Of a stretch of 64,000 nt of DNA, positions 6,247 to 26,080 are shown piece by piece (position 1 is the first letter of the stretch; the number at the start of each line of letters is the position of its first letter). A program made the translations under genes and the position numbers. The stretch covers positions 2,335,467-2,399,466 of the forward strand of contig OZ220710.1 of the NCBI GenBank assembly GCA_965116635.1. Reading direction: 5' to 3'. The notes below the pieces were generated by a model. The model saw only the letters and a list, made by a program, of their open reading frames with translations, searched no databases and was not told the origin of the DNA. The DNA comes from Thermodesulfobacteriota bacterium. Its GTDB lineage: Bacteria > Desulfobacterota > Binatia > UBA9968 > JAJDTQ01.

Positions 6247-6339
6247 GAACGAGTACCCGGGGGGCTCGAGGATTGATCGCTTCCAACGCACCTGGAATCC
6301 TGTATTCTACCGGACCGGACTCGGAGTATGTCGGACTCC

Positions 6340-7206: not shown

Positions 7207-7335
7207 GGCCCGGAGAATGGTGTCGGCCGGTTCGGCCCTTCCGATTCGGCGGAAGGCGCCGGCAAGCCGTCCGGCGATGGCTGAATGGCCGCCTTCAAGA
7301 AGACGGCGAAGCAGGCCGGATGCGTCACGGCCGGG

Positions 7336-8100: not shown

Positions 8101-8121
8101 CGGCGACTCTCCGCCCTCTCC

Positions 8122-9102: not shown

Positions 9103-9144
9103 GGTATCTCCGTAAACACTAGGGAAACTCCGTTGAATTGCCGC

Positions 9145-9277
9145 CGTTCGAGATGGCGCCCTTCGACTTCGCTTCGCTACGCTCAGGGCGAACGGCAATT
9201 GAGTCAAGGAACCCTGATCATACTCCGTTCGCCCTGAGCGTAGCGAAGCGAAGTCGAAGGGCGCCATCTCGAACGGT
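9145..9277. repeat. Repeat family A: near-perfect palindrome, two inverted ~52-bp arms (ccgttcg...cttcgacttcgcttcgctacgctcagggcgaacgg) around a ~31-bp spacer
   Basis: Read directly. The left arm at 9145-9194 is the reverse complement of the right arm at 9226-9277. The same core recurs at 11907, 12097, 15632, 40868 and 50701. Confidence 0.85.
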
Positions 9278-9302
9278 ACCATCAAGATTAATCGGAGTCT
9301 CC

Positions 9303-10586
9303 CTAGTCATCCGCCCCCCTGCTCGGGGCCACGATCCAGATGCACGCCAACGATAGCGCACACAGGACAATGCCGATCCAGCCCGAGCTGGCATAGCTGC
9401 CGGAAAGGTCGTGGAGGTAGCCCGCCAGCCAAGGGCCGACGCCCGCGCCCATTCCTATGCTGAAAGCCAGGAAGCCGATGATGGAGCCGAAATGCTTGCC
9501 ATGAAAGATATCGGCGGCGATGGTCGGATAGAGCCCCTGGCGCGACCCGAAACCCACGGCGAACAGCGGCGGGTAGAGGGACACCACGAGTATCTCCGAC
9601 ATTCCGTCGAGGTTGAGGAGGACCACGATGCCCCCCACCAAGGCCAGGCTGCCGATGGTGTAGGCCCGCTCGCTGCCGATCCGGTCCGAGAGCGTCCCCA
9701 TGCCGATCATGCTGAAGGTGGTGAAGAACCCGGTGAGGCCCAAGACCCAGGCGCCGAACTCCCGCGAGAGTCCGGCGTCCACCATGGCGGCCACCTGGTG
9801 CACCAGCACCATGTGCACGGGGATGGCGCCAAACACGAACCCCCCGGCCAGCGCCCAGAACCGGTAGTTGCGGAGCGCCTGGGCGAGAGTCATGCCGCCT
9901 TCGAGCGCCCGGCGCGGCCCTCCGCTTTCCGCCGCGGTGGTAACGCCGAAATCCGGCAGCAGTCCCATGTCCTGCGGCCGGCGCCGCTGGAGCAGCAGGT
10001 TGAGCGGCACCACCGCCGCCAGCATCACGCCGGCCAGCACCAGATATGCGTTGCGCCAGCCCAACGCGACGATCAGCCACTCCGTGGCCGGCACCACCAG
10101 AAAGATCCCGACGCCGATGCCCGAAGCCGCGAGGCCCATGGCCATGCCGCGCTTGCGTACGAACCAGTTGGTGATGACCGTGGCCTGCGACGTCATGGGC
10201 AGCGCGGCGAAACCGAGTCCGACCAGAAGCCCCATGCCCAGGTAGTAGTGCCAAACGGTCTGCGTCATGGCGCTGACGGCGAATCCCGCCGCCATGAGAG
10301 CCGCGCCCGCCGGGAACACGACCCTGGGGCCGAGCCGGTCCAGCATGTGCCCCCACGCCGGCGCGGAAACGGTCCACGCCACCGAGCCCAGGGCCAGCGC
10401 GCCGGCGGCCAACCCGCGGCTCCACTGAAACTCCTCGATAACCGCCACGAAAAAGAGCGCGAACGCCGCGCGGCACCCGAAGGCGGCGGCCACGGTCATG
10501 AACGAGATGCCCAGCACCACCCACGGGTAGGTGCGGTTGAGCCGTGCGGTGCGAGCGGAAACGGAGTCGGCGGCCAGGGTTTCCAA
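9303..10586 (-). CDS. MFS transporter
   Basis: 427 aa with about 12 predicted hydrophobic helices in a typical MFS arrangement. Confidence 0.85.
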   Translation of the reverse strand: METLAADSVSARTARLNRTYPWVVLGISFMTVAAAFGCRAAFALFFVAVIEEFQWSRGLAAGALALGSVAWTVSAPAWGHMLDRLGPRVVFPAGAALMAAGFAVSAMTQTVWHYYLGMGLLVGLGFAALPMTSQATVITNWFVRKRGMAMGLAASGIGVGIFLVVPATEWLIVALGWRNAYLVLAGVMLAAVVPLNLLLQRRRPQDMGLLPDFGVTTAAESGGPRRALEGGMTLAQALRNYRFWALAGGFVFGAIPVHMVLVHQVAAMVDAGLSREFGAWVLGLTGFFTTFSMIGMGTLSDRIGSERAYTIGSLALVGGIVVLLNLDGMSEILVVSLYPPLFAVGFGSRQGLYPTIAADIFHGKHFGSIIGFLAFSIGMGAGVGPWLAGYLHDLSGSYASSGWIGIVLCALSLACIWIVAPSRGADD

Positions 10587-12181: not shown

Positions 12182-13075
12182 GGTGCCGGCGGCGTGGCGT
12201 TCTTCCCGGAGCGCGGCGATCCGGTCCTCGAGGGGGGGATGGCTGGCGAAGAGCATCCGCAGACCGCCCTTGCGGACGCCGGCGATCCCCATTGCCTCCA
12301 ACTGTTCCGGCATGTGCTCGGGCTCCACGCTGCGTTGGAGCGCCTCGAGGGCGCCGATCATGCTGGCCTTGCCGGCCAGATACGCGCCGCCAGCGTCGGC
12401 CCGGTACTCGCGCCGGCGCGAGTACCAGGAGACCACCAAGCTGGCCAGGATACCGAGCAGGATCTGCGTGACGATCACGGTGACGAAGTAGCCCATGCCG
12501 TAGCCCCCTTCGCCGTCCCGGTGGAGCGCGCGGTCCACGACGTATCCGATTACGCGGGAAAGGAAGATCACGAAGGTGTTGAGAACGCCCTGGAGCAGGG
12601 TCAGCGTCACCATGTCGCCGTTGGCCACGTGGCTCACCTCGTGACCCAGCACGGCCGAGGCCTGATCCGGCTTCATGGTCCGCAGCAGTCCCGTGCTCAC
12701 CGCCACTAGTGAGTTGTTGCGGCTCGGGCCCGTGGCAAAGGCGTTGGGCTCCGGGGAATCGTAGACCGCCACCTCGGGCATGGCGATGTTCGCGGCCCGG
12801 GCGTAGTTTTGCACGGTGTTGACAAGCCAGATCTCGGTGTTGTTTTGGGGCTCATCGATGACCGTCAATCCCATCCATCTCTTGGCCGTCCACTTGGAGA
12901 TGCGCAACGAGATGAACGCGCCGCCCATGCCGAAGATGAAGGAGAAGGCCAGCAGCGGCCAGAAGTCGATGCCGTATTGAAAAAGCAACCACTCAAGGCC
13001 GAGTACACGGAGCGCAACGGCCAGCACGAAAACGATTGCAAGGTTGGTGATCAGAAAAAGAAATACGCGTTTCAT
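12179..13075 (-). CDS. htpX: protease HtpX homolog (M48 family zinc metalloprotease)
   Basis: N-terminal TM helices. HEXXH in GHEVSHVANGDM, typical of HtpX. The stop codon TAG (12179-12181) lies inside the MITE terminal repeat. Confidence 0.85.
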   Translation of the reverse strand: MKRVFLFLITNLAIVFVLAVALRVLGLEWLLFQYGIDFWPLLAFSFIFGMGGAFISLRISKWTAKRWMGLTVIDEPQNNTEIWLVNTVQNYARAANIAMPEVAVYDSPEPNAFATGPSRNNSLVAVSTGLLRTMKPDQASAVLGHEVSHVANGDMVTLTLLQGVLNTFVIFLSRVIGYVVDRALHRDGEGGYGMGYFVTVIVTQILLGILASLVVSWYSRRREYRADAGGAYLAGKASMIGALEALQRSVEPEHMPEQLEAMGIAGVRKGGLRMLFASHPPLEDRIAALREERHAAGT

Positions 13076-13220
13076 GGACCTGTTCCCTTCCTCTCGCGAA
13101 TATCAGCCCTCAACAACAAATCTACAATGCAGATCATGCCGAATCAATTTCGTCGCGCACCGGGGCCTTCGGAAAATTTAACCATCGGCACCGGCTTGTA
13201 AAGGGATCGCTCCGTTCCAG

Positions 13221-14441
13221 CTACTCGATTTCCCGGACCGCGGGCAGCCGCACCAGCCCGTAGAAGGCCATCATCGCCACCAGGAAACCGCCCAGGGCCA
13301 CGGCGGCGGGCGCGCCCGCGTACTCGGCCACCGCCCCCGCCACCGCGCCGCCCAGGGGCATGAGGTCCCAGGTGAGCCCGAACAGCCCCAGCACCCGGCC
13401 CCGGAGCTCGTTGGGAAGGTTCAGTTGCAGGATCGTGTTGATGGAGGTCAGATAGATCTGGTTGAACAGCCCGAGGAAGAAGATCAGTCCCAGGGACAAG
13501 GGAAACGAGGACGAGTACGCAAACAGCATGAGCAGCGTCCCGAAGGTCGCCGCCCCCACCAGCACCTGCCACCCCCTGCGCCCGGCCTGGGCCAGATAGG
13601 CCACCGTCAACGTGCCCAGCAGCGCGCCCACGCCGGAGGAGGACTGGAGCAGCCCGAACCCGCGAGAGTCCACCAGCAGGATATCCCGGGCGAACACCGG
13701 CATCAGGATGACGAAGGACATGCCGAAGATGCTGTTGAAGCAGGTGAGCCCCAGAAGGCTGTAGAAGAGCTGGTTCCGGCGGACGAAGTCGAGCCCGGCG
13801 AGAATGTTGCGCCACACGCCGCCCTGGGGCTGCCCGACGATGGGGCGGCTTCGGATGAACGCCCACAGAGCCACCGCCGCCGCCGAGCTCACGAAACAGG
13901 CGATAAAGGTATGGCCGACGCCGAACCAGTGAATCAGCAGGCCGGCGAGCCCGGGGCCCACGAGACGGCACGCCTGCCACACCGAGCTTCCCAGGGCCAC
14001 CGCGTTGGCGATCTCCTCCCGCGGCACCATTTCGGGCAGCAGCGCGTACCGGCTGGGCCGGTCGAAGGAGCGGAGAAAACCCGAGTTGAAGGCGAATACG
14101 AGCACGTGCCAGAAGGCGATGCGCTCGGTAATGATCAGCAGCCCCAGCACGAGGTAGGCCACGGCCAGCAACGACTGGGTGAGCACCATGATGCGCCGCT
14201 TGTCGGCCCGGTCCGCGATGGCCCCGCCCACGAGCACCAGGGAAACCCGCGGCACCGCGTAGGCGATCCCGGCCACCCCCAGCATCAGCGGCGAATCCGT
14301 CAGCAGGAACACCAGCCACGCCTGGGCCGCCATCTCCATGTTGAGCGCCAGCACGGAGGAGAGCTGCCCCAACCAGTAGAAGCGGTAGTTCCTGTGGCGC
14401 AGGCCGGCGAACAGCCGGCGGAGCATGGTTTCGGATTTCAT
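13221..14441 (-). CDS. MFS transporter
   Basis: 406 aa, polytopic, with MFS-type repeat architecture (RNYRFYWLGQ near the N-terminus). Confidence 0.85.
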   Translation of the reverse strand: MKSETMLRRLFAGLRHRNYRFYWLGQLSSVLALNMEMAAQAWLVFLLTDSPLMLGVAGIAYAVPRVSLVLVGGAIADRADKRRIMVLTQSLLAVAYLVLGLLIITERIAFWHVLVFAFNSGFLRSFDRPSRYALLPEMVPREEIANAVALGSSVWQACRLVGPGLAGLLIHWFGVGHTFIACFVSSAAAVALWAFIRSRPIVGQPQGGVWRNILAGLDFVRRNQLFYSLLGLTCFNSIFGMSFVILMPVFARDILLVDSRGFGLLQSSSGVGALLGTLTVAYLAQAGRRGWQVLVGAATFGTLLMLFAYSSSFPLSLGLIFFLGLFNQIYLTSINTILQLNLPNELRGRVLGLFGLTWDLMPLGGAVAGAVAEYAGAPAAVALGGFLVAMMAFYGLVRLPAVREIE

Positions 14442-14527
14442 GGGCGGCTTTGTTTCCAGGGGCCGTTTGGGTATAGAACTCGGTGGGCGCGCCGTCCACC
14501 GAAGCCCACTCCGTGGAGAATGGATCG

Positions 14528-15613
14528 ATGAAGGTCAGCCTCTTTACCGAAGTGCAGTGCCCCTCGGGAAGCGTTCCCGCCGAACTGCTGGTGCAGTTTC
14601 TCGAACAGGCCGAGCTGGCCGACAACCTGGGCTACGACGGCTACTGGATAGCCGAGATCCACTTCACCCCCAGCTTCTCGCTCCTGTCCGCCCCTTACGT
14701 GGTGCTGGGAGCCGCCTCCCAGCGCACCCGGAACCTGCGCCTGGGGGTTGCGGTCAACACCCTTCCCGTCCACCACCCCATGCAACTCGCCGAGCAGGCC
14801 GCCACCCTGGACGTCCTGAGCAACGGCAGGATGTGCTTCGCCGCCGGCGGCGGGCATCCCCACACCCGCGCCTACGAGTGCTTCGGCGTGGAACACGAGC
14901 ACGTCCGGGACATCATGGAGGAAAGCATCGAGGTCATCCGGCTGGCGTGGACCGAGGAGGCCGTGGACTACCAGGGCCGTTTCTTCCGGATCCCCAGCAT
15001 CGTCGCCAACCCCAAGCCGGTGCAGCAGCCCCATCCGCCCCTCTACACCGCCGCGAGTTCCCTCGACGGAGTGAACTTCGCCGCCCGCATGGGACTGAAT
15101 CTCTTCATCCCGGTGCACGTGCGGACCGCGGAAGAGCTGCGCGAATTCGCCGCCACCTACTGGAAGGTGCTGGCGGACCACGGCCACGACCCGGAAGACC
15201 ACGAGCTCGGCCTGCTCCTGCCCATGCACGTGGGCGGCACCCCGGACGAGGCCCGGGCGCGATCCGAGGCCGGAGTCATGAGCTACTACGACGTGATCCG
15301 GGAGACCCGCGGAAGCTACGCCCAATGGCTCACGGCCCAGGGACGGCCGCTGCCCGAACGGCTACGCAAGAACGCGGCCGCGGACAGCCTGACCTTCGAT
15401 CGCGTGTGCAGCGAGTTCGCCGCCATCGGCACGGCGGATCAAGTGGTGGACCGGGTCGCCGGTCTGGCCCGCGACACCGGCGCCGGGCACGTGCTGGCGT
15501 GGATGAATATCGGCAGCGTCTCCCACCCCCACATCAAGGAGTCCATGCAGCGTTTCGCCGAGGACGCCCTGGCCGCGGTGCGGGAGATACAGCCGTTCCG
15601 TTCAGGCCGTTAA
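14528..15613 (+). CDS. LLM class (luciferase-like) flavin/F420-dependent oxidoreductase
   Basis: Luciferase-like monooxygenase signature. Preferred start is ATG 14528 (MKVSLF), preceded by GGAGA; the track ORF starts at 14483. Confidence 0.85.
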   Translation: MKVSLFTEVQCPSGSVPAELLVQFLEQAELADNLGYDGYWIAEIHFTPSFSLLSAPYVVLGAASQRTRNLRLGVAVNTLPVHHPMQLAEQAATLDVLSNGRMCFAAGGGHPHTRAYECFGVEHEHVRDIMEESIEVIRLAWTEEAVDYQGRFFRIPSIVANPKPVQQPHPPLYTAASSLDGVNFAARMGLNLFIPVHVRTAEELREFAATYWKVLADHGHDPEDHELGLLLPMHVGGTPDEARARSEAGVMSYYDVIRETRGSYAQWLTAQGRPLPERLRKNAAADSLTFDRVCSEFAAIGTADQVVDRVAGLARDTGAGHVLAWMNIGSVSHPHIKESMQRFAEDALAAVREIQPFRSGR

Positions 15614-15631
15614 GAGGCTGTCGGATTCTTG

Positions 15632-15750
15632 CGTCCTTCGACTTCGCTTCGCTACGCTCAGGACGAACGGAGAGAGACTTTCACAACCGTTCGTCCTGAG
15701 CCCTTCGACAGGCTCAGGACAGGCTTCGCGAAACGAAGTCGAAGGACGCT
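15632..15750. repeat. Repeat family A palindromic element (with an internal insertion in the right arm)
   Basis: gcgtccttcgacttcgcttcgctacgctcaggacgaacgg ... ccgttcgtcctgag ... cgaagtcgaaggacgc. Confidence 0.85.
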
Positions 15751-15752
15751 CC

Positions 15753-15980
15753 CTAGTGTCCGTCGTCCTGCTTGAGAGGCCGGAGGCCGCGGCTCATACG
15801 GCCCAAAACCACCACCAGGAAGCCCGCGCTCACGGAAACGGTGGCGATCAACAACGCGATTCCCGCCTGGGTGGCGTGAAAAATGCTTTGCGTGGTCAGG
15901 GCCGCCGACGCCGCGTAGGCGCCGTATCCGGCGGCCACGGCGCCCCAGCCGAACAGTATCGCTGCCGCGAAAACGACCAT
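15753..15980 (-). CDS. hypothetical small membrane protein
   Basis: About 75 aa with two hydrophobic segments. The internal start MVVFAAAILFGW was chosen. Coding status is weakly supported. Confidence 0.3.
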   Translation of the reverse strand: MVVFAAAILFGWGAVAAGYGAYAASAALTTQSIFHATQAGIALLIATVSVSAGFLVVVLGRMSRGLRPLKQDDGH

Positions 15981-16087
15981 GAACGGGAACCTCACACAAG
16001 GCCGCGGGCAAGTCAACGAGCGATTCTGGACCCGGCCACGCAAAGTTGCTACGGTCCTGTAACGTGCACGAAAGGCCCAAGTCAGCC

Positions 16088-18331
16088 ATGAATCAGGACA
16101 GCCAGTCACCCGAAACCACCCACGACATCGATCCGATCCGCTACGAAATGTTCCTCCACCGGCTCTGGGCCATCGGCGAGGAAGGCCGGATGACGCTGCA
16201 GCGCGTTACCGCCTCTCCCATCGTCGCCCAGGGGGGCGAGTGCATGAGCTCGTTCTACGACGCCGGCGGCACCATGGTGCTGGCCTGCTCCGGACATCTC
16301 CGTTTCGCCCACGCCACTTCCGACGCCATCAAGCATCTCATCGACACCTTTGGAGAGTCGCCAGGGTTCTTCGACGGCGACCAGCTCTTCTTCAACGACC
16401 CCTACGTGGCCGGCGCTCACACCTACGACATGATGGTCATCAAGCCGATCTTCCACGACGGCGGTCTCATCGGCTGGGTGGCCACCAGCACCCACACGGC
16501 GGACACCGGCGGCAACCTGCGGGGCGCGGCCACCGAGATCTTCCACGAGGGCATCCGGATCATGGGCCTCAAGGTGGTGGAGCGCGGCATCTTCCGCGAG
16601 GACGTGTTCAAATCCCTCACCGAGCAGTGCCGGGACCCGCAATACGTGGGGCTGGACCTCAAGGCCATGATCGCCGGAAACAACGTTTGCGGACGGCGCT
16701 ACCTCGGCCTGGTGGACAAGTTCGGCCTGGAATTCGTCCAGGCCGCGGGCGCCCGGATCATTGCCGACACCGAGGCGGCGGCGCGGGCCAAGCTCAGGTC
16801 CCTGCCGGACGGCACCTGGACCGGACGCACCTACCTGACGTTTCTGGACACCAAGACCCGCAAGGCCGCTCCGCTCCGGATTATGAGCACGCTCACGAAG
16901 AAGGGGGATCAGTTGACGCTGGACACCACCGGCACCAGCCCCCAGACCAGCAGCGACGTCAACTCGACCTTTCCCAGCACCCGGGCGCTCATCGGCGTCG
17001 CCATCACCAACACGCTCTTCTGGGACGTCCCCTGGAGCGACGGCAAGTGGGCTCCCATCGATCTCGTGGTGCCGGAGGGATCGGTGCTGAACTGCCGGTT
17101 CCCGGCGGCCTGCGCCGCCGCCCCGGTGGTGGGCGGCATCCTGGTGGCGGCAACGTGCGAGGCCGCCGGCAAGATGCTTTACGCGGCCGGCCGGCACCAG
17201 GACGTCCCGGCCTCGTGGTACGCCACCTGGTACGAGGGCGGCCCGGGCTACATCCCCGCCGGTCACAACCGCGAGGGTGTCCGCACCGCCATGGGCATCT
17301 ACGACATCCACGGCAGCGGCCTCGGCGCCACGCCGCTGCACGACGGCGTCAACACCGGCGGCCACATGAACATCCCGTCGGGAGGGATCAGCGACGTCGA
17401 ACGCACGGAGATGCAGTATCCGCTGCTCTATTTCTCCCGCAACCACAACACCGACGGCTCCGGCTTCGGCAAGTACCGCGGCGGGGTCGGCACCTACCGG
17501 ATCTTCATGGTGTACGGCTCCCAGGATTTCTCCACCGACTTCAAGCCCTACGGCTGGATACCGCAGGGGGCCTATGGACTGTTCGGCGGACATCCCACCG
17601 GCCCCGGCGGGATCCGCGCCATCTTCCTCACCGAAAGCGACATCGTGGAGCGTCTGGCGGCGGGCAACTACCCGGCCCGGCTTGACCAGATCGAGGCCGA
17701 CGACTGGGGCAAGGCGCTGATTCCGGAGGGCGCCCCCGGCCGTGTGTCGCTGCCCGAGTTCACGCTCCTGAGCGACTACGTCCAGAGCGGCGGCGGCTAT
17801 GGCGATCCGCTGGACCGTAACCCGGCGGCGGTGGCCCGGGACGTCCGGGTCGGCGTGTCCACCGAAGCATCGGCGCGGCGGTTCTACGGCGTCGTGCTGC
17901 GCCGGGAGGACGGCGAGGTGGACGAACCGGCGACCGAGGAACAGCGGAACGCCATACGGACGGCACGGCTCGAGCAGGCGGCGCCGGTAACGCCGGGCGC
18001 GGCTCCGGACGGGAAGACCGTGGAAGGGCAGCCGCTGACGCGGATTCACGAGACGCTGGAAGTCGTGCGGAACGGCGCCGGGAAGCGGATCCGCTGCATG
18101 CGCTGCGGTTTTGACTTCGGCGGCACCGACGGGAACTACAAGAAACGCTGCCTCAAGCGCGTCGTCGAGCTGGACGAGATCGGCGGCCAGCATCCGGTAT
18201 CGGGCGACGGCTATCTGGGAAGGTACCACGAATACATCTGTCCCGGCTGCGCCACGCTGCTCCAGGTGGACGTCTACTGTCCGCAACTGGGCGGCGAGGA
18301 AGACCTCTGGGACATCCACATCGAGGCTTGA
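16088..18331 (+). CDS. hydantoinase B / 5-oxoprolinase / acetone-carboxylase-alpha family protein (HyuB-like) with C-terminal Cys4 zinc-ribbon-like extension
   Basis: The HyuB N-terminal signature is present (DPIRYEMFLHRLWAIGEEGRMTLQRVTASPIV...MSSFYDAGGTM). The last ~80 aa carry CMRCG...CPGC. Confidence 0.8.
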   Translation: MNQDSQSPETTHDIDPIRYEMFLHRLWAIGEEGRMTLQRVTASPIVAQGGECMSSFYDAGGTMVLACSGHLRFAHATSDAIKHLIDTFGESPGFFDGDQLFFNDPYVAGAHTYDMMVIKPIFHDGGLIGWVATSTHTADTGGNLRGAATEIFHEGIRIMGLKVVERGIFREDVFKSLTEQCRDPQYVGLDLKAMIAGNNVCGRRYLGLVDKFGLEFVQAAGARIIADTEAAARAKLRSLPDGTWTGRTYLTFLDTKTRKAAPLRIMSTLTKKGDQLTLDTTGTSPQTSSDVNSTFPSTRALIGVAITNTLFWDVPWSDGKWAPIDLVVPEGSVLNCRFPAACAAAPVVGGILVAATCEAAGKMLYAAGRHQDVPASWYATWYEGGPGYIPAGHNREGVRTAMGIYDIHGSGLGATPLHDGVNTGGHMNIPSGGISDVERTEMQYPLLYFSRNHNTDGSGFGKYRGGVGTYRIFMVYGSQDFSTDFKPYGWIPQGAYGLFGGHPTGPGGIRAIFLTESDIVERLAAGNYPARLDQIEADDWGKALIPEGAPGRVSLPEFTLLSDYVQSGGGYGDPLDRNPAAVARDVRVGVSTEASARRFYGVVLRREDGEVDEPATEEQRNAIRTARLEQAAPVTPGAAPDGKTVEGQPLTRIHETLEVVRNGAGKRIRCMRCGFDFGGTDGNYKKRCLKRVVELDEIGGQHPVSGDGYLGRYHEYICPGCATLLQVDVYCPQLGGEEDLWDIHIEA

Positions 18332-18335
18332 CACC

Positions 18336-19511
18336 ATGGCGGGAACACTCGAAGGCATCAAGATTCTGGAGCTGTCCAGCTTCGTGACGGGGCCGTTCGC
18401 CTCCATGCTCATGGCGGACCTGGGCGCGGAGGTCATCAAGGTCGAAGACCGGGAAAAGGGCGATCCGTTCCGCGGTTGGGGCGAGCGGCTCTACTCGGCC
18501 ACCTTTTGCAGCCTGAACCGGAACAAGAAGAGCATCACGCTGGACATCCGCAGCGAGGAGGGCCGGGACATCTGCCGCCGGCTGGCGGCCGAGTCCGACG
18601 TGCTCATCGAGAACCACCGCCCGGGCGTCATGGCCCGCCGAGGCCTGGATTACGACACGATCCGCGCGCTGAACCCCCGGATCGTCTACTGCTCTATTTC
18701 CGGCTTCGGCCAGGACGGACCCTATCGTGACCGGCCCGGGTTCGATACCGTCGGCCAGGGGATGAGCGGGCTGCTGAGCCTGCTCACGGATCCCGACCAG
18801 CCCAAGGGCATGGGCATCTCCCTGTCCGACCACCTCACCGGCGTCTACGCCTGCTACGGCGTGCTGGCGGCGCTGGTGAACCGGATGATGACCGGCGAGG
18901 GACAGATCATCGAAACGTCCCTGTTGCGCGCGTCGGTATCCTTTACCGCGGAAAACTGCGCCCGCTACTTCGAAACCGGCGTGGTGCCCAGCCGGGCCGA
19001 CCGCACCCACACCGCCGGGGTCTTTGCATTCGTGGACCGGGACGGCAAACCCTTCGTCGTCCACTTGTCCTCACCCGACAAGTTCTGGCTCGGCCTCGTG
19101 GAAGTGGTGGGCAAACCCGAGTGGGCCGAAGACCCGCGATTCGTGGACAAGAAAGGCCGCACCGACCACCACGACTTGCTGGAAGAGGAGCTCCAGGCCA
19201 TCTTCGGCCAGGACTGCCGCGACGTGTGGCTGCGCAAACTCGAGGAGCACGACGTCCCCTCCACCCCGTTGAACAACCTCGAGGACATGTTCAACGATCC
19301 GCAGGTGCGGCAGTACGGCTTCCCCATCGAGGTGGAGCACCCCGAGATGGGCAAGGTGAAGCTGGTGGGCAGCGGCGTCAACATGAGCCGGACGCCGCCG
19401 GAGACTCCGACCCCCCCGCCCATGCTCGGCGAGAACACCGATGAAATCCTGCAGGGCCTGGGTTACGGCGTAGACGCCATCGAGGGGCTGCGCGCGCGAC
19501 AGGTCATCTAG
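18336..19511 (+). CDS. CoA-transferase family III (CaiB/BaiF-like)
   Basis: N-terminus MAGTLEGIKILELSSFVTGPFASMLMADLGAEVIKVE, typical of family III CoA transferases. Starts 5 bp after the HyuB stop. Confidence 0.85.
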   Translation: MAGTLEGIKILELSSFVTGPFASMLMADLGAEVIKVEDREKGDPFRGWGERLYSATFCSLNRNKKSITLDIRSEEGRDICRRLAAESDVLIENHRPGVMARRGLDYDTIRALNPRIVYCSISGFGQDGPYRDRPGFDTVGQGMSGLLSLLTDPDQPKGMGISLSDHLTGVYACYGVLAALVNRMMTGEGQIIETSLLRASVSFTAENCARYFETGVVPSRADRTHTAGVFAFVDRDGKPFVVHLSSPDKFWLGLVEVVGKPEWAEDPRFVDKKGRTDHHDLLEEELQAIFGQDCRDVWLRKLEEHDVPSTPLNNLEDMFNDPQVRQYGFPIEVEHPEMGKVKLVGSGVNMSRTPPETPTPPPMLGENTDEILQGLGYGVDAIEGLRARQVI

Positions 19512-19720
19512 TGTCAATCGTCCCGTGACGCCCATCCAGGGGCCGTCGGAGGCTCTTTCGGCGTGTGGAGATGGGTCAAAATTTCATGGCGTTTTTTCGT
19601 TGCTTGGAGCCGCCCAAGTCTGATAGGTACTTAACTCTTTTATAACTTTGGCGTGATCGCGGCATGTGCCACGACGGACCACGGTCCACGCGGCTACGGC
19701 GGGTAACGCCCGGAACACGG

Positions 19721-22255
19721 ATGACCGGTATGATGTACCACACCAAAACCCTTTGCCTTCTGGTGGCACTGTTCATGTCCCTCGCCTCATGCGTCTCCAT
19801 CGAGGAACACGAGGAACTGAACCGCGAGAAACAACGCGTAGAGGCGGACAATACCACTCTGACGCAGGACCTTCAGCGCCGAGGACGCGAGGTTACCACC
19901 CTCGAAGCGAGAGTCGCGGAACTGACGCAGGACGTGACCCGGTCCGAGGGCAGGCTCGAACAGAGGGGACAGGAACTCGCGGACGCGCAACGACAGATCA
20001 ACGAGCTGACGGCATCCCTGGCCCAGGTCCGGCAGGAGTTGAACACCGCCGTCACCGAACGAAGCAACACCGTGAACCGCTACCAGCGGAGAGTGGCGGA
20101 TTTGACGGCCGAACGGGACAACACCCTCAAGACCGTCGACGACTATGCCGCGCAACTCGACGAAAAAGCGGCGGCAGTACAGGATCTGGACGCCAGAGTT
20201 CGGGAATTGGCCCGTCTCAGGGACTCCCTGGTGCAGCAGAACGCCCTTCTGGCGACCGCCAAGGCCGATCTCGAAGAAAACTTCGCCGCGCTTGTACGCA
20301 ACCGGGATGAATTGACCGCGCAAGTGGAAGGGCTTGGGACCCAGGTGGCCCAGCAGGATCGGGTCATCAGCGGCATGAGCGCCCAAACCGATCGGCTGAA
20401 CGCGGTGAAGCAGTCGCTGGAAGCGGAAGTCACCAACCAGAAGGCCAGCATGGCACAGTTGCGGCAGCAAGTGTCGGAAGTGACACGCTCACTGGAACAG
20501 ACCCGCGCCGACAAGGACGACGCCCTGGCCAACCTCGCCGCAAAGGAAGAGGAAGCCGGCGAAAAACTCGCCTCCCTGACCGCCGCCCATGAGCAGGCCG
20601 TCGAACAACACCGGCGGCAACTGGCCCTGACCACCCGCTCGCTGAACCAGACCCGCGCCGACAAGGACGAGGCCCTGGCCAACCTCGCCGCAAAGGAAAA
20701 AGAAGCCGCCGAGAAACTGGCGTCCCTTACGTCCCTTGCCGCCGCCCATGAACAGGCCGTCCAAAAGCTCCGGCAACAACTGGCTCAAACCACTCGCTCA
20801 CTGGAGCAGACCCGCGCCGACAAGGACGACGCCCTGGCCAACCTCGCCGCAAAGGAAAAAGAAGCCGGTGAGAAACTCGCCGCCCTTGCCGCCGATCATG
20901 AACAGGCCGTCACAGAGCTCCGGCAGCAACTCGGTCAGACCACTCGCGCCCTGAACCAGACCCGCGCCGATGAGGAAAAGGCCTTGGCCGACCTCGCCGC
21001 CAGGGAACGGGCGACCACCGCAAGCCTGATTTCTCTCACCACCTCCCACGAACAGGCCGTCAGCCAGTTGCGGCAACAATTGGCACAGGCCACGGCTTCC
21101 CTCGAACAAGTGCAGACGAAAAAGGACCAGGAAATCGCCGCCCTGACCGCCGATTCACAACGCCTTGCGAAACAGTTGGCGACGTTGAGGGCCGGCCATG
21201 AAGAAGCCACCGGACGACTGCGGCAGCAACTGGCCGAAGCGACACGGTCTCTCGAACGGACGCAGGCCGGGAAGGACCAGGCGCTCGCGGCCTTGACGGT
21301 GGTCCAAGGAGACCTCACGACACAATTGGGGCAACTGAAGTCCGCCGTCGAACAGGCTGTCGGAGAGTCGCAGAGACAACAGGCTCAAGCCGCCGTGGCG
21401 CAACTTGAACAACGCCTGGCGGAGGTGAATCGTTCGCTGGGACAGACCCGCGCCGAGAAGGAACAAGCCTTGGCCGACCTGGCTGCCAGGGAAAAGGAAG
21501 CGACCGAGAAGCTCACCTCGCTCACCACCGCCCACGAACAGGCCGCCGCGCAACTTCAGGGGCAACTGGATGAGACCAACCGCTCCCTCGAGCAGACCCG
21601 GGGCGAGAAAGCCAAAGCGGTAGCCGATGTCGCCGCCAGGGAAAAGGAAGCGGCCGAAAAACTCGCCGCCCTCACCGCCGCCCACGAACAGGCCGCCGCG
21701 CAGCTTCAGCGGCAACTGGACGAAACCAATCGCTCGCTCGAACAGACCCGCAGCGAAAAAGAACAGGCGATGGCCGATCTCACCGCCAAGGAAAAGGAAG
21801 CGGCAGACAAGATCGCCGCCCTCACCGCCGCCCACCAGCAGGCGGCCGCGCAGCTTCAACAGCAACTGGAAGATACCAACCGCTCGCTCGAACAGACCCG
21901 CACAGAGAAGCAGCAGGCCGTGACCGATCTGGCCGTCAAGGAAAAGGAGGCGGCAGACAAGATCGCTGCCCTCACCGCCACCCACAATCAGGCCGCCGCG
22001 CAGCTACGGCAGCAACTGGCGGAAACCAACCGCTCGCTCGAACAGACCCGCACAGAGAAGCAGGAAGCCGTTACCGCCCTGGGCGTCGACAAGCAGAAAC
22101 TCGCGCTGCAGATGACCAAGGCGGAGGCCGAGCGCGACGCCCTCAAGCAACAGATCGAGGGAAAACTCGTGCTGGAAACCTACTGGCAGTGGATCTTCGG
22201 CGCGGTCGTGGGCCTCGGAGCCATTGGTTGGGGTTCCAGGTGGTTCCGGTCGTAG
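19721..22255 (+). CDS. lipoprotein with ~10 tandem 50-aa coiled-coil repeats and C-terminal transmembrane anchor
   Basis: Signal peptide plus lipobox (LFMSLASC). The unit RSLEQTRADKDDALANLAAKEKEAGEKLASLTAAHEQAVEQHRRQLAQTT is repeated about 10 times. The C-terminus WQWIFGAVVGLGAIGWG is hydrophobic. Confidence 0.7.
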   Translation: MTGMMYHTKTLCLLVALFMSLASCVSIEEHEELNREKQRVEADNTTLTQDLQRRGREVTTLEARVAELTQDVTRSEGRLEQRGQELADAQRQINELTASLAQVRQELNTAVTERSNTVNRYQRRVADLTAERDNTLKTVDDYAAQLDEKAAAVQDLDARVRELARLRDSLVQQNALLATAKADLEENFAALVRNRDELTAQVEGLGTQVAQQDRVISGMSAQTDRLNAVKQSLEAEVTNQKASMAQLRQQVSEVTRSLEQTRADKDDALANLAAKEEEAGEKLASLTAAHEQAVEQHRRQLALTTRSLNQTRADKDEALANLAAKEKEAAEKLASLTSLAAAHEQAVQKLRQQLAQTTRSLEQTRADKDDALANLAAKEKEAGEKLAALAADHEQAVTELRQQLGQTTRALNQTRADEEKALADLAARERATTASLISLTTSHEQAVSQLRQQLAQATASLEQVQTKKDQEIAALTADSQRLAKQLATLRAGHEEATGRLRQQLAEATRSLERTQAGKDQALAALTVVQGDLTTQLGQLKSAVEQAVGESQRQQAQAAVAQLEQRLAEVNRSLGQTRAEKEQALADLAAREKEATEKLTSLTTAHEQAAAQLQGQLDETNRSLEQTRGEKAKAVADVAAREKEAAEKLAALTAAHEQAAAQLQRQLDETNRSLEQTRSEKEQAMADLTAKEKEAADKIAALTAAHQQAAAQLQQQLEDTNRSLEQTRTEKQQAVTDLAVKEKEAADKIAALTATHNQAAAQLRQQLAETNRSLEQTRTEKQEAVTALGVDKQKLALQMTKAEAERDALKQQIEGKLVLETYWQWIFGAVVGLGAIGWGSRWFRS
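20480..22080 (+). repeat. ~150-bp in-frame tandem DNA repeats (about 10-11 copies) inside the coiled-coil lipoprotein gene
   Basis: Repeated cgctc(g/a)ctggaacagacccgcgccgacaaggacgacgccctggccaacctcgccgcaaaggaa... units. Confidence 0.8.
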
Positions 22256-22266
22256 CGGGTGGACTC

Positions 22267-22992
22267 TCAGCCCGTCATGTCGGGCCAGTCCCGCAGCAGC
22301 TTCCCGTAACCGGCAATGCTGCATGAAAACCCGACCCTGGAGAGCATGAACCAGAGCATGGCGGGATTGCTGGCCACCACCGGCCGCGAGAGGTTCTGCT
22401 CGATCCGGTCCAACACCTTCAGCGGGTCCAGCACCGCCCCCTGGAAATAGACCGCGTCCACGTCCGGGTTCGCCGCAAGCGCTTTTTCGGTGAGCGCGTA
22501 CACGTCCTCGGGCTCCACCGTCATGGCGTCGCGGTAGTCGTCGAAGGTATCCGCGGGTGAGATCGCTTCGATGCCGCAGTCGGTGAGATAGTCGCGGATC
22601 AGCTTGTTCATGGACTCGACGAACGGGGTCAGCAGCAGCACCCTGGGAGTCGAAAGAGACTTCAGCGCCTCCACGCAGGATTCCAGCGCCGTCGTCACCG
22701 GCACGTCCACCGCATCCTTCAACCGCCCCAGCAGTCCCGGATTGAGCACCTCCACCGGCGCCCCGCTGACGATGACACCCTTCCAGCCACGCTCCCGCGC
22801 CAGCCGGGCCGAGGTCTCCACCACCATGTCGTCGGTGCCCCTGAGGCTCTCCAGGGACCCGCGGACGATTCCCAGCCCCTCGAAGTCCATCTCGACTTCC
22901 TCGGGGATGAAGGCCCGGAACGGCTCGAAGTGGGCGCTTGAGCTCGAGATGGGTGTGACGAAACCAATTTTGAGTTTTGCCGGCTCTGCCAT
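22267..22992 (-). CDS. Asp/Glu/hydantoin racemase superfamily protein (maleate isomerase / arylmalonate decarboxylase-like)
   Basis: 241 aa with a two-lobed racemase-like pattern (GFVTP...SSSAHFEP; LLLTPFVESMN). Confidence 0.55.
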   Translation of the reverse strand: MAEPAKLKIGFVTPISSSSAHFEPFRAFIPEEVEMDFEGLGIVRGSLESLRGTDDMVVETSARLARERGWKGVIVSGAPVEVLNPGLLGRLKDAVDVPVTTALESCVEALKSLSTPRVLLLTPFVESMNKLIRDYLTDCGIEAISPADTFDDYRDAMTVEPEDVYALTEKALAANPDVDAVYFQGAVLDPLKVLDRIEQNLSRPVVASNPAMLWFMLSRVGFSCSIAGYGKLLRDWPDMTG

Positions 22993-23020
22993 GGGTTCCT
23001 CCTTGTCCGGAAACCGATCT

Positions 23021-24220
23021 TCAGAACGAACGCGCGGCGATCCAACTGCCGCCGATGAAAGTGCCCAGGGTGCTCCCCAGGTTCGAGAACACGACGACGA
23101 GCAGGATACGCGAGACGGGGTTGCGCCAAAGCCCCTTGGGGAACGCGGTCACCACCTCGCCCATGGCCTCCAGGTCGGCCACGGTGGGCTTCTTGACCCA
23201 GGCCTGGACCAGTCCCGAGACCCAGCCGGCGGCGATGGCGGGGTTGAGGCTCGTGATGGGGGCGGCCAGAAACGCGGCCAGCACCGTCACCGGGTGGCCC
23301 AGGGCCAGCGCCGCGCCCGCCGCCGCCAGAACGCCGTTCACCAGCACCCAGATGGAGACGGACTCCAGGGAGTGGGCGGCGCCGGCGCGGTAGAAGCCGT
23401 AGGCGATGATCGCCACGATCAGGGAAGGCACCAGCCACTTGATGCTCCTGGACCACAGCGAACGCTCGGGGACGGTCTCGAGAGGAGCCAGCGAATGGTC
23501 CGTGTGAATCGCCCGGGCGATGCCCGGCACATGCCCCGAGCCCACCACCGCCACCACCCTCTCGCCCTCGGCTTCCCGGATCTTCTGCGCCAGGTAGACG
23601 TCCCTCTCGTCGATGATCGAGTGCTTGATGGCGGGAAAGGCGTTGGCGAACTCCACCAGGACGTCCCCCAACCGTTCCTGCCGCTTGAGATCGTCCACCG
23701 CCTGCTTGTCGATCTCCGGCTCCACCACCACGCTGCTGAGAAGCACGAAGAGCAGCTTCAGCTTGTTCCAGTAGTTGAGGCCGCGCCAGGTCCTTTTCAA
23801 TGTCACCTGGACGTCGCGGTCCACCAGCACAAGCTCCACGCCGCGCTCATGCGCCAGCTTGACGCCCTCCAGCATATCGGCGCCGGGCCGGACGCCGAGC
23901 CGGTCGCCGATGCGCTTGTAGAACGCCGACATGATCAGTTGGCTCAACAGGAGGGCGGCCTTGCCCTCCTTGATGACCTTGAAGACGTCCATCTTGCGCC
24001 AGGCGTCAGGCCGGGTGAAGGCCTCGTACCGGGCCTGGCACAACTCCACGCAGATGGCGTCGGGCGCCACCGTCTCCACGGTCCTGCGCACGTCCTCGAC
24101 GCTCTCCGAAGACACGTGCGCGGTGCCGACGAGATAGATCTCCCGGCCCCGGTCATGAAGGCGCCGGGTGTTGGCCGGGAGTCCGGTAGGCGCCGGGCCT
24201 TGTGCTTCGTCCGTGTCCAC
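23021..24220 (-). CDS. TraB/GumN family protein with C-terminal membrane domain
   Basis: EIYLVGTAHVSSESVEDV and AICVELCQARY are TraB-family motifs. C-terminal hydrophobic helices. The start is uncertain: the track ORF reaches 24442, but the first ~75 aa look non-coding (R/G-rich), so GTG near 24220 is proposed. Confidence 0.65.
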   Translation of the reverse strand: MDTDEAQGPAPTGLPANTRRLHDRGREIYLVGTAHVSSESVEDVRRTVETVAPDAICVELCQARYEAFTRPDAWRKMDVFKVIKEGKAALLLSQLIMSAFYKRIGDRLGVRPGADMLEGVKLAHERGVELVLVDRDVQVTLKRTWRGLNYWNKLKLLFVLLSSVVVEPEIDKQAVDDLKRQERLGDVLVEFANAFPAIKHSIIDERDVYLAQKIREAEGERVVAVVGSGHVPGIARAIHTDHSLAPLETVPERSLWSRSIKWLVPSLIVAIIAYGFYRAGAAHSLESVSIWVLVNGVLAAAGAALALGHPVTVLAAFLAAPITSLNPAIAAGWVSGLVQAWVKKPTVADLEAMGEVVTAFPKGLWRNPVSRILLVVVFSNLGSTLGTFIGGSWIAARSF

Positions 24221-24225
24221 GCGGG

Positions 24226-25041
24226 TCAAACCTGCGCCACCGGCCCGTCGTAGTTCCGCAGCCAGCCGATGAACTGGACGATCTGGTCGACCATGTAGTC
24301 GTGGTATGCCTTGCCCTTCTCGGGCGACGCCTTGATGGAAGGGCTGAAGGAGCCCGTGGGGACGATGCGGCGTTGCTCCGTGCTGGTCCAGGGAATGTCG
24401 ATGACCTCGTGCGGCGCGGAGAAGAGGTCGCCGTGGGACCACGGCGAGAAATTCTCGTCAAAGTCCACCTGCGAGGTGGTGAGCTTCTCCTGCTTGATCA
24501 GGTGGGGGTACTTGTACCAGCACTCCGAGATCTCCAGCTCGCCGCTGTGATGCTCCTTGGCTTCCTTGATCTCGTTGGCGATCTTCTTGGCGATCTTCAC
24601 CGGATCGATGACCGCGAAGAAGACCTCGGGCATCTCGTACTCGCGCAGGTTCTTGGTGGCCGCCAGCAGGCCGGGGAGGTTGGCGCCCTTGTGTCCGTTG
24701 ATGATGAGGATCTTCCGGAAGCCGTGCTTTTGCAGGCTGCGGCTCATGTCCTGGATCACCGCCATCAAGGTCTCGGTGCGGAGCGAGATGGTTCCCGGGA
24801 AACCCAGGTGATGCGGCGAGTCGCCGAACCACAACGGCGGCGTGCACAGCGTTCCGGTAGCCCGGGCCACGTCTTCCGCCAGGGCGATGGCGATGAGGCA
24901 GTCCAGCCCCAGAGGGCCGGCGGGGCCATGCTCTTCGGTGCTGCCCACCGGACAGATGATGATGTCGGAGTCCTCGAGGTATGCCCCGACATCCTCCCAA
25001 GTCAGTTCCTGAAGCCATACCGAGCCAAGCTGCGCCGCCAT
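24226..25041 (-). CDS. creatininase (creatinine amidohydrolase) family protein
   Basis: CPVGSTEEHGPAGPLGLD is the creatininase metal-binding block. ATG at 25041 is preceded by AGGAGG. Confidence 0.8.
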   Translation of the reverse strand: MAAQLGSVWLQELTWEDVGAYLEDSDIIICPVGSTEEHGPAGPLGLDCLIAIALAEDVARATGTLCTPPLWFGDSPHHLGFPGTISLRTETLMAVIQDMSRSLQKHGFRKILIINGHKGANLPGLLAATKNLREYEMPEVFFAVIDPVKIAKKIANEIKEAKEHHSGELEISECWYKYPHLIKQEKLTTSQVDFDENFSPWSHGDLFSAPHEVIDIPWTSTEQRRIVPTGSFSPSIKASPEKGKAYHDYMVDQIVQFIGWLRNYDGPVAQV

Positions 25042-25102
25042 TTCATCTCCTCCTGTCCGGTGGCCCGCGGCGTCGTCCCCGCGCCGCCGCCGGTTCTTCG
25101 AT

Positions 25103-26080
25103 CTATTTGATGGCCAAGGGATTCGTGGGGGAGCCCACCGCACCGGTGACCGGCAGCGCGGGGGCCACGAACATGAACTCGTAACGCCCGTCCTCGGCAC
25201 AGTCCTCGGCGAGTTCTTCCAGATGGAAGATCTCGCCCACGGTGAGACCCATGTTCGGGATGCTGACCCAGTGCCAAGGCTGGTTGGCCTCGCGGGTCTG
25301 GTTGGGGCGGACCTCCACTCCCCAGGTGTCGGTGGCCACCGCGGCCACCTCCTTGGCGTGGAGCCAGTCCAGGGTCTCGAAACCGAGCCCCGGGGCGTCG
25401 CCGCCCGGATAGCCGTCCCAGGAGCCGGCGTCCAGCTTGGCCTTCATCTGGCCCGTGCGCACCAGCACGAAGTCGCCCCGCCGGACCTCCACGTCCTGGG
25501 CCTTCAGGGCGCGGTCGAGGTCGCGGTTGGTGATGGCATAACCGTCCTTCAGCCAATCGGCGCCCTTCGCCCGGGCCACGTCCAGCAGCACGCCGCGGCC
25601 GACCATCTTGTCCCGGGTCTTCTCGATGCCGTTTTTGGCGGCCCCGCCGGTGGTGACCAGCCGGCAGTCGTAGCCGTTGTACATCCGGTCTTCGTAGAAG
25701 ATGTGCGCCAGCCCGTCCCACTGGGTGCCGGCCTGGAGCGGCATGATGATGATGTCGTCGGCGCCCCGGATGCCCCGGTGGTCGAGCACGCCCGAGTAGG
25801 CGTCCGTGCCGGTGCGGAGCATGAGGTGTATGGGATTGAAACGGCCCATGGCGGGATAGTTGCTCTTGCCGCCTTGCGGGCCCGAGGCGTCGAAGTCGAG
25901 GGCCAGGGAGAACACCCGGCCCCTGCGCACGAGCTGCGCGGCGGCGACGACGTCTTCCGGCGTGGTGAAGTTGAGCGTACCGACCTCGTCGTCCTTGCCC
26001 CACCGGCCCCAGTTGCGCAGCCGCTCGGCCGCTTCCCGGATGCGCTCCATGCTGAGTTTCGGACGTCTGCGAGTCGCCAA
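25103..26080 (-). CDS. cyclase family protein (kynurenine formamidase-like), divergent metal motif
   Basis: PF04199-like layout. The canonical HxGTHxDxPxH block reads QAGTQWDGLAH here. Confidence 0.75.
   Translation of the reverse strand: MATRRRPKLSMERIREAAERLRNWGRWGKDDEVGTLNFTTPEDVVAAAQLVRRGRVFSLALDFDASGPQGGKSNYPAMGRFNPIHLMLRTGTDAYSGVLDHRGIRGADDIIIMPLQAGTQWDGLAHIFYEDRMYNGYDCRLVTTGGAAKNGIEKTRDKMVGRGVLLDVARAKGADWLKDGYAITNRDLDRALKAQDVEVRRGDFVLVRTGQMKAKLDAGSWDGYPGGDAPGLGFETLDWLHAKEVAAVATDTWGVEVRPNQTREANQPWHWVSIPNMGLTVGEIFHLEELAEDCAEDGRYEFMFVAPALPVTGAVGSPTNPLAIK

Follow-up and report, generated by a model that had tools for sequence, protein, structure and literature searches.

Few carboxylases are driven by ATP without the help of biotin; those for acetone and acetophenone belong to this group, and what their small Zn-binding gamma subunit does is not yet clear (PMC5543143, PMC5214803). 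A locus in a Thermodesulfobacteriota bacterium (GTDB lineage Desulfobacterota; Binatia) raises the question of what such an enzyme does when its HyuB-type subunit (alpha in acetone carboxylase, Acx; beta in acetophenone carboxylase, Apc) carries gamma as a fused tail and has no gene for a HyuA-type, ATP-binding subunit beside it. The locus lies within 64,000 nucleotides (nt) of contig OZ220710.1 (assembly GCA_965116635.1, positions 2,335,467 to 2,399,466, forward strand; GC content, ~66%), hereafter the window, and consists of a gene for a beta::gamma fusion protein of 747 amino acids (aa) followed by one for a family III coenzyme A (CoA)-transferase (Table 1). The reading that we tentatively favor, without holding it to be probable outright, is that the fusion protein is the catalytic module of a ketone-carboxylase-type enzyme, with HyuA supplied in trans and the CoA-transferase activating the acid product.

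A HyuB-type subunit with a fused gamma domain

Domain searches bore out the original prediction, made from the DNA letters alone, of a HyuB-type protein with a fused four-cysteine (Cys4) tail. The protein matched Hydantoinase_B (PF02538) over profile positions 1 to 519 of 519 (339.7 bits; cut-off, 26.8) and Acetone_carb_G (PF08882) with 29.7 bits (gathering cut-off, 21; E = 8e-7), and the gamma-like domain extends past the Pfam match to the C terminus. Residues 575 to 654 between them comprise a segment homologous to the gamma-embracing C-terminal extension of Apc-beta and Acx-alpha and then a variable linker; alignments to those two chains (5l9w_A and 5m45_A) reach query residues 633 to 636, so that the HyuB part plus arm is ~640 aa long. 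The likeness of the CxxC...CxxC tail to a gamma subunit, also noted at the outset, proved to be homology far above chance. A profile made from only the tails of family members retrieved chains 5m45_C (E = 2.7e-8) and 5l9w_C (E = 3.6e-7; residues 4 to 101 of 129) from the PDB, and its cysteine pairs coincided with the published Zn ligands of Apc-gamma (Cys22/25/75/78; PMC5214803) and Acx-gamma (Cys74/76/124/127; PMC5543143). C670, C673, C718, and C721 were invariant among 34 homologs (58 to 87% identity), contrary to the possibility that the tail is a standard extension of HyuB homologs devoid of metal-binding cysteines. An AlphaFold model of the whole protein (predicted local distance difference test [pLDDT] score, 76.9; predicted template modeling score, 0.81; tail pLDDT, 80 to 91) was matched by Foldseek best to Acx-alpha 5m45_A (E = 2.5e-37; template modeling score, 0.74) and also to Apc-beta 5l9w_A, then to N-methylhydantoinase and caprolactamase beta, with gamma chains 5svc_C and 5l9w_C matched separately.

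The predicted catalytic metal site is likewise intact. Residues E51, H111, D114, and H136 align to E89/H150/D153/H175 of Acx-alpha (5m45_A), the Mn ligands of that enzyme (PMC5543143), and the last three to H123, D126, and H148 of the Apc-beta metal site (D65/H123/D126/H148; PMC5214803). All four were invariant among the 34 homologs, as was, but for a single variable position, the gating motif ASPIVxQGGE (residues 42 to 51), whose counterpart in Acx is a Mn-proximal helix that opens an internal channel upon nucleotide binding at the HyuA-type subunit (PMC5543143).

In comparisons with orthologs, the ratio of nonsynonymous to synonymous substitution rates (dN/dS) was 0.11 to 0.20 for the whole gene, and 0.07 to 0.14 for the HyuB part, 0.15 to 0.25 for gamma, and 0.33 to 0.62 for the linker; the gene is under purifying selection, with constraint relaxed in the linker. 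A decaying or redundant paralog with no function of its own might be suspected, given that the gene is one of several paralogs per genome and that its operon partner HyuA has been lost. These selection data, together with an open reading frame (ORF) intact in all orthologs, invariant metal and Zn ligands, and an operon with the CoA-transferase that is kept at 74 to 99% identity and is found again in Chloroflexota, effectively refute that explanation and leave it vanishingly improbable. By its pattern of conservation the fusion gene is clearly functional, with no sign of a lost interaction surface.

A large family of fusions, mostly linked to HyuA

A search of ~5.8 billion protein sequences returned 852 matches, the best 120 of which were all at least 59% identical to the window protein and ~714 to 778 aa long. 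Most of these 120 were already annotated with both Pfam domains, and their source names were only "hydantoinase B/oxoprolinase family protein" or "N-methylhydantoinase B". The family comes from Binatia, Chloroflexota, and "Deltaproteobacteria" metagenome-assembled genomes (MAGs), and the beta::gamma fusion is a universal trait of it; since most members also have an adjacent HyuA gene, the "unusual subunit arrangement" that had been ascribed to this gene in particular does not hold. A search with the tail alone among 1.84 billion representative sequences gave mostly C-terminal fragments of fused proteins, together with a few proteins of ~100 aa.

Gene contexts were surveyed by tblastn with reference neighbors for 179 fusion genes in 171 loci (numbered L001 onward), genome loci being limited to the best 80 of 200. 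HyuA lay within 5 kb of 103 of the 179; another 33 had none in that range although their DNA reaches 5 kb or more to either side, and the contigs of 43 were too short to judge. Many members share the operon HyuA-fusion-thiolase-DUF35 (zf-ChsH2/OB), with gaps of 6 to 32 nt. The linked type in Binatia is HyuA-fusion followed by two distant CoA-transferases, and a further layout has a luciferase-like (LLM) oxidoreductase gene, HyuA, one additional gene, and the fusion. Peptidase M24 genes recur near family loci. A single HyuA gene accompanies two fusion genes at L032, L042, L057, L090, L096, L097, and L154; the two fusions differ from each other and stand in tandem or flank HyuA, as at L090 (positions 6001 to 10464), and L019 has such a pair as well.

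Within Binatia, the window copy falls in a clade, here called W, that has the order LLM oxidoreductase, small divergent membrane ORF, fusion, CoA-transferase. This layout recurs at L001 to L003, L088 (74% identity), and L091 to L093; the LLM gene is upstream in all W-type loci that reach that far except L015, the fusion/CoA-transferase pairing is kept wherever there is DNA past the fusion gene, and the spacing between the two is 4 to 5 nt in most. Orthologs with 85 to 92% identity lie on complete Binatia chromosomes, and contigs 98 to 99% identical were present in Joint Genome Institute (JGI) metagenomes.

HyuA is missing in cis only

The absence of a HyuA partner, as originally predicted, stood in cis but not in trans. 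Pfam scans of ~30 among the predicted ORFs of the window, all large ones included, detected no Hydantoinase_A domain, and tblastn queries with three HyuA proteins of the family reached no better E value than 0.67 over the full 64 kb. A HyuA gene just beyond the window in the same operon is countered by the HyuA-free DNA on either side of the fusion gene, 16 kb upstream and 45.7 kb downstream. Binatia genomes, however, hold three to four fusion paralogs each, only one of them with HyuA adjacent. W orthologs were present on nine complete Binatia chromosomes, and for seven of these the best 80 of 200 loci included such a HyuA-fusion locus, distant from the W locus (on OY282432.1, W at 2.21 Mb and HyuA at 3.95 Mb). 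The other two chromosomes had none among these loci, and theirs may fall below the best-80 cut. The closest MAG (CAZVUC01; 92% identity) also carries a HyuA-fusion locus (L038). Among metagenomes with W contigs of 98 to 99% identity, LXNJ01 also yielded a HyuA-fusion contig (L133), and for the W-bearing sample Ga0209020 one came from its sibling Ga0209021 (L123).

In a rough, unbootstrapped neighbor-joining distance tree, W groups with a second HyuA-less Binatia clade, N, and with the HyuA-linked members L089/L094/L103, L090/L096/L097, L018, and L104, of which the last two have HyuA adjacent to the fusion. The nearest relatives of W outside Binatia are HyuA-linked: L089/L094/L103 (72% identity to the window fusion) have the order Amdase-HyuA-plain HyuB-fusion, and the relative at L090/L096/L097 (68%) is the first of two tandem fusions under one HyuA. 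From this grouping, HyuA linkage was probably ancestral to W. At L089 (967 to 9080), L094, and L103, the fusion is preceded directly by a complete pair of plain HyuA and HyuB (582 aa) genes, so that three HyuB/HyuA-type genes stand together, and an Amdase-like gene is at the flank in all three; a creatininase-family gene flanks L089, the sole locus of the three with enough DNA past the fusion.

Ketone carboxylation or lactam hydrolysis

The original prediction had left open carboxylation or ring opening, and of the two a carboxylase now fits the protein better. We favor the carboxylase type, judging from homology, because of the gamma domain, the Apc/Acx-type C-terminal arm, and the best matches to ApcD and Acx-alpha. 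In the PDB, the HyuB part scored highest against Apc-beta 5l9w_A (209 bits) and Acx-alpha 5m45_A (180 bits), arm included, and the best aligned stretch of caprolactamase beta (6yra_B) stops at about residue 469. The NCBIfam equivalog models gave 235.5 bits for ApcD (NF042976; cut-off, 1500) and 172.9 bits for CapB (NF050157; cut-off, 1000). Ketone carboxylases have a gamma subunit, which hydantoinase-type lactamases lack, and a longer beta subunit (~670 to 684 aa in Apc versus ~580 aa in hydantoinases, which lack the C-terminal arm) is among the proposed criteria for ketone carboxylases (PMC5214803). The window protein has the Cys4 gamma, fused rather than separate, the longer HyuB part with its arm, and the four metal ligands; an adjacent HyuA-type gene (acxA, or apcA plus apcC) is absent from the window.

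With AcxABC of Xanthobacter autotrophicus (5M45, 5SVB, 5SVC) the fusion protein shares the fold of the HyuB-type alpha subunit, the four Mn ligands, the ASPIV.Q.GE motif, and a homologous Cys4 gamma. Unlike AcxABC, it is only 26% identical in sequence, its gamma is fused and shorter (without the ~50-residue N-terminal part of Acx-gamma), and its gene adjoins one for a family III CoA-transferase instead of an acxA-type gene. Apc of Aromatoleum aromaticum (5L9W) is the best sequence match for both parts of the protein and resembles it in the length of the HyuB part, in the gamma-embracing arm, and in the logic of CoA activation followed by thiolysis, which is seen in sister loci of the window fusion. 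Unlike in Apc, gamma is fused, and neither an alpha/alpha' kinase pair nor an epsilon subunit is encoded near the fusion gene; further, Apc has its kinase subunit duplicated, and in the two-fusion operons of this family the converse, a duplicated catalytic subunit, is seen. In the solved Apc complex the C-terminal arm of beta embraces gamma, and in acx operons the gamma gene comes directly after the HyuB-type gene (PMC5214803), so a fusion is a structurally and genetically simple join. Its wide natural occurrence shows gamma to be an obligate 1:1 appendage of the catalytic subunit, which fits a structural role. Neither beta::gamma fusions nor orphan HyuB-type enzymes nor ketone carboxylases of Binatia were described in the literature searched; the individual components are familiar, whereas the fused architecture, the multiparalog expansion, and the kinase-less operons are not.

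That the protein is instead a subunit of an ATP-dependent cyclic-amide (lactam- or hydantoin-type) hydrolase, possibly acting on a substrate that the CoA-transferase has activated, is quite unlikely in our estimation. Models for it would be hydantoinase, oxoprolinase, caprolactamase, and 2-oxoindoleacetyl-CoA gamma-lactamase, and family lactamases acting on a CoA thioester have been mentioned (PMC5214803). N-methylhydantoinase (7hk5/9h03) and caprolactamase (CapAB; 6YRA) are clear relatives in sequence and structure within the same superfamily, sharing PF02538 and the His/Asp/His metal motif region (Foldseek E = 1e-28 to 1e-31). Creatininase, cyclase, Amidohydro_2, and Asp/Glu/hydantoin-racemase-like "Amdase" genes, of families typical of cyclic-amide metabolism, lie 4 to 10 kb downstream, and the neighbors of L089-type relatives and the recurrent Peptidase M24 point the same way. 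The downstream genes are, however, on the opposite strand and past an unrelated 863-aa gene, and gamma and the long beta arm mark the ketone-carboxylase branches. To our knowledge, all HyuAB lactamase types that have been solved and characterized are encoded with, or fused to, their HyuA. The genes that directly follow HyuA-linked fusions, for a thiolase and a DUF35-type protein, also speak against lactam hydrolysis and for a beta-ketoacyl product.

The CoA-transferase as a proposed activator of the acid product

Only 4 nt separate the stop codon of the fusion gene from the second gene of the operon, which starts at 18336 rather than 18337; this confirms the tight spacing first reported (5 bp). 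Its product covers PF02515 in full (387.9 bits; profile positions 1 to 366 of 366), as do dicarboxylate family III CoA-transferases such as SUGCT (9BR7), BbsEF (9FN0), and formyl-CoA transferase; unlike these, it scores below every NCBIfam equivalog cut-off, the best model being succinate--glutarate CoA-transferase (NF052585; 286.7 bits against 750). In the PDB it matched SUGCT (9br7) best, with 239 bits, and BbsEF with 176 bits. The Asp of its SLSDHLTG motif aligns with an Asp in SUGCT, which we take to be the catalytic Asp of family III CoA-transferases. By these scores the enzyme is closest to the dicarboxylate type, and for that reason we propose that it activates the acid product. The CoA-activated substrate of the original prediction fits less well: CoA-transferases of this type stand beside thiolase and DUF35-type genes in sister loci, as expected for activation of the product.

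Under the favored reading, the fusion protein would be the core subunit, bearing the Mn/Fe site and the Cys4 Zn gamma much as an acxB::acxC fusion would, and a HyuA encoded in trans would supply the ATP-activated substrate, the window fusion being perhaps an alternative partner for the one HyuA or part of a mixed beta/beta' core. The carboxylic acid so formed, either a beta-keto acid or a dicarboxylate, would be converted by the CoA-transferase to its thioester, with succinyl-CoA or another acyl-CoA probably as donor, and the thioester would then be cleaved thiolytically. A beta-keto acid that is CoA activated and then cleaved fits the thiolase and DUF35 genes directly after HyuA-linked fusions; the acetophenone route has the same order of carboxylase, CoA activation, and thiolase, and benzoylacetate and acetoacetate are known to be CoA activated and cleaved (PMC5214803). 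The substrate might be a ketone from alcohol or alkane oxidation: Binatia are predicted to oxidize alkanes, including propane to isopropanol (PMC8262859), which makes ketones plausible substrates, and the main text of that study mentions no acetone, ketones, or hydantoinases. The domain makeup, the fusion itself, the conservation of the ligands, the structure of the operon, the phyletic and context patterns, and purifying selection come directly from the data; from these we infer carboxylation over lactam hydrolysis, a HyuA in trans, the order of the CoA-transferase step, and, as a possibility, a ketone substrate.

The pairing of fusion and CoA-transferase extends beyond Binatia. Chloroflexota locus L004 has, 6 kb away from its HyuA-fusion-thiolase-DUF35 operon, another fusion gene with a CoA-transferase gene after it, whose product is 57% identical to the window enzyme, and enzymes with 61 to 70% identity occur near fusions at L108, directly before thiolase and DUF35, and at L100. 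A single clade of CoA-transferase-linked fusions was considered and found no support in the tree, where the second L004 fusion groups elsewhere; the CoA-transferases of these loci are even so 57 to 70% identical.

Kinase-less clades and what weighs against a HyuA in trans

The HyuA-less state is not peculiar to the window, and several points weigh against the favored reading. No HyuA occurs within 10 kb at any of the 10 clade W genome loci, and the layout is stable across the whole clade (74 to 99% identity). Clade N (64 to 67% identity) is HyuA-less as well, with a nitronate monooxygenase (NMO)-family gene before the fusion, and so is clade T (~60%), which has a divergent pair of genes for a cyclase and a zinc-dependent alcohol dehydrogenase and, downstream, TctC/TctA. 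Stable absence in all three could equally be read as an ATP-independent function. To this are added the HyuA-free window, the two chromosomes on which no HyuA-linked locus was retained, the roughness of the tree, the amidohydrolase-type genes downstream, an identity to Acx and Apc of only 26 to 27%, and the fact that no member of the fusion family has been characterized. We know of no precedent in this enzyme family for one kinase subunit common to several catalytic subunits. The interface between HyuA- and HyuB-type subunits is moreover large in solved complexes, 3540 A2 in Apc (PMC5214803).

In the N clade, the NMO (flavin mononucleotide [FMN]) gene directly precedes the fusion (8777 to 10004 in L022/L028); it overlaps the fusion start in L028 and is separated from it by ~50 to 150 nt in other loci of the clade.

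An orphan beta::gamma protein might then be a metal-dependent, ATP-independent catalyst that decarboxylates a beta-keto or malonate-type acid, runs ketone carboxylation in the downhill reverse direction, or carries out a hydrolysis or isomerization, the cotranscribed CoA-transferase interconverting its substrate, a free acid, with the CoA ester. Besides the HyuA-free 64 kb and the 33 of 179 family genes with no HyuA within 5 kb on sufficiently long flanks, this explanation has in its favor that W, N, and T are each tied to a different non-kinase partner and that the metal site, the site of C-C chemistry in Acx, is intact. Nevertheless, W retains 333 (88%), N 333, and T 334 of the 379 columns in which the alignment of HyuA-adjacent fusions is conserved to 90% or more, the nucleotide-responsive gating helix included; the closest relatives are HyuA-linked, HyuA lies elsewhere in most related genomes, and a stand-alone HyuB-type enzyme was not encountered in the literature searched. 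We consider this explanation unlikely, if somewhat less so than lactam hydrolysis.

A broader view, of which we are also doubtful but which seems to us slightly less remote, takes the Binatia fusions as interchangeable catalytic modules, three to four per genome, each with its own pathway partner: the CoA-transferase in W, NMO in N, and in T the zinc-dependent alcohol dehydrogenase with cyclase and a tripartite tricarboxylate (TTT) transporter. They might share one HyuA, form mixed cores, or work independently of ATP. Mixed beta/beta' cores are suggested by the tandem fusion-fusion operons, which carry a single HyuA. Metagenomes with contigs 98 to 99% identical to W also hold N-type and T-type contigs. 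Kinase-less paralogs in three conserved contexts within one phylum raise the question of whether an ATP-binding subunit can be shared by several catalytic subunits or a metal site can work without phosphorylated intermediates. They also flag, as far as homology can tell, an unannotated, multicopy ketone- or acid-activating capacity in Binatia.

Features and neighbors of the operon

TABLE 1 Features of the fusion-CoA-transferase operon and its neighbors (window coordinates)
Feature	Position	Strand	Basis or remark
Luciferase-like (LLM) oxidoreductase, upstream	14528..15613	+	PF00296, E = 1.3e-64
Small ~75-aa hydrophobic ORF (MVVFAAAILFGWG...), probably two transmembrane segments	15753..15980	-	ORF list; no Pfam match
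Conserved upstream motif TcTGGACCCGGCC-N4-AAAGTTGCTA	16025-16051	+	Invariant blocks in alignment of 8 orthologous upstream regions
Ribosome binding site GAAAGG of fusion gene	16070-16075	+	
Fusion gene, 747 aa: HyuB-type (Acx-alpha/Apc-beta-like) plus gamma-type Zn ribbon	16088..18331	+	ORF and translation (ATG at 16088, TGA ending at 18331), Pfam
Hydantoinase_B PF02538, residues 15-574	16130..17809	+	Pfam, E = 3.3e-101
Predicted catalytic metal site	16238..16495	+	Alignment; E51 16238-16240, H111 16418-16420, D114 16427-16429, H136 16493-16495
C-terminal arm/linker, residues 575-654	17810..18049	+	Alignments to 5l9w_A and 5m45_A
Gamma-like Zn-ribbon domain, Pfam match at residues 655-732	18050..18283	+	PF08882
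Cys4 (C670, C673, C718, C721)	18095-18097, 18104-18106, 18239-18241, 18248-18250	+	Alignment to gamma Zn ligands
Family III (CaiB/BaiF) CoA-transferase, 391 aa, second operon gene	18336..19511	+	PF02515, E = 6e-116
Amdase/Asp-Glu-racemase-like gene	22267-22992	-	
TraB-family gene	23021-~24220	-	
Creatininase-family gene	24226-25041	-	Best NCBIfam 3-dehydro-scyllo-inosose hydrolase IolN, below cut-off
Cyclase gene	25103-26080	-	

The motif TGTGGACCCGGCC-N4-AAAGTTGCTA, invariant and located between the small divergent ORF and the fusion gene, is a candidate promoter/operator of the operon. A scan for the sigma-70 consensus gave no promoter, terminator-like matches all fell within genes at about the background rate, and an Rfam scan of 13000 to 23000 (E <= 0.1) gave no match. 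The small hydrophobic ORF is conserved in 7 of 8 orthologous loci, with a 76-aa gene call in L001 to L003. It parts the LLM gene from the operon, and cotranscription of the LLM and fusion genes was rejected because this conserved ORF lies between them on the opposite strand. NCBIfam placed the LLM protein in neither an FMN nor an F420 subfamily; that it might supply the enzyme with a ketone, as an F420-dependent secondary-alcohol dehydrogenase, is speculation.

Directly 3' of the CoA-transferase gene, an 863-aa ORF (19664 to 22255, + strand) has a lipoprotein-type signal (...SLASC), a C-terminal transmembrane segment, and a long coiled coil of ~50-aa (150-bp) tandem repeats (arrays at 20730 to 21007 and 21434 to 22071), with a very strong AT skew of 0.42. 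Its orthologs in close relatives are 718 to 1590 aa long or split, which suggests that repeat number changes rapidly. The opposite-strand block that follows (22267 to 26080) is syntenic across W-type loci; its Amdase and creatininase genes were rejected as orthologs of those flanking L089-type loci, with identities of only 24 to 29%. Farther out, the window holds three paralogous molybdopterin large subunits of the xanthine dehydrogenase/aldehyde oxidase type (3949 to 6246, +; 36965 to 39289, -; 46707 to 48959, +), several Amidohydro_2 genes, and tripartite ATP-independent periplasmic (TRAP), TTT-like, and NMT1-type transporters, and the 64-kb region looks like a stretch rich in catabolic genes.

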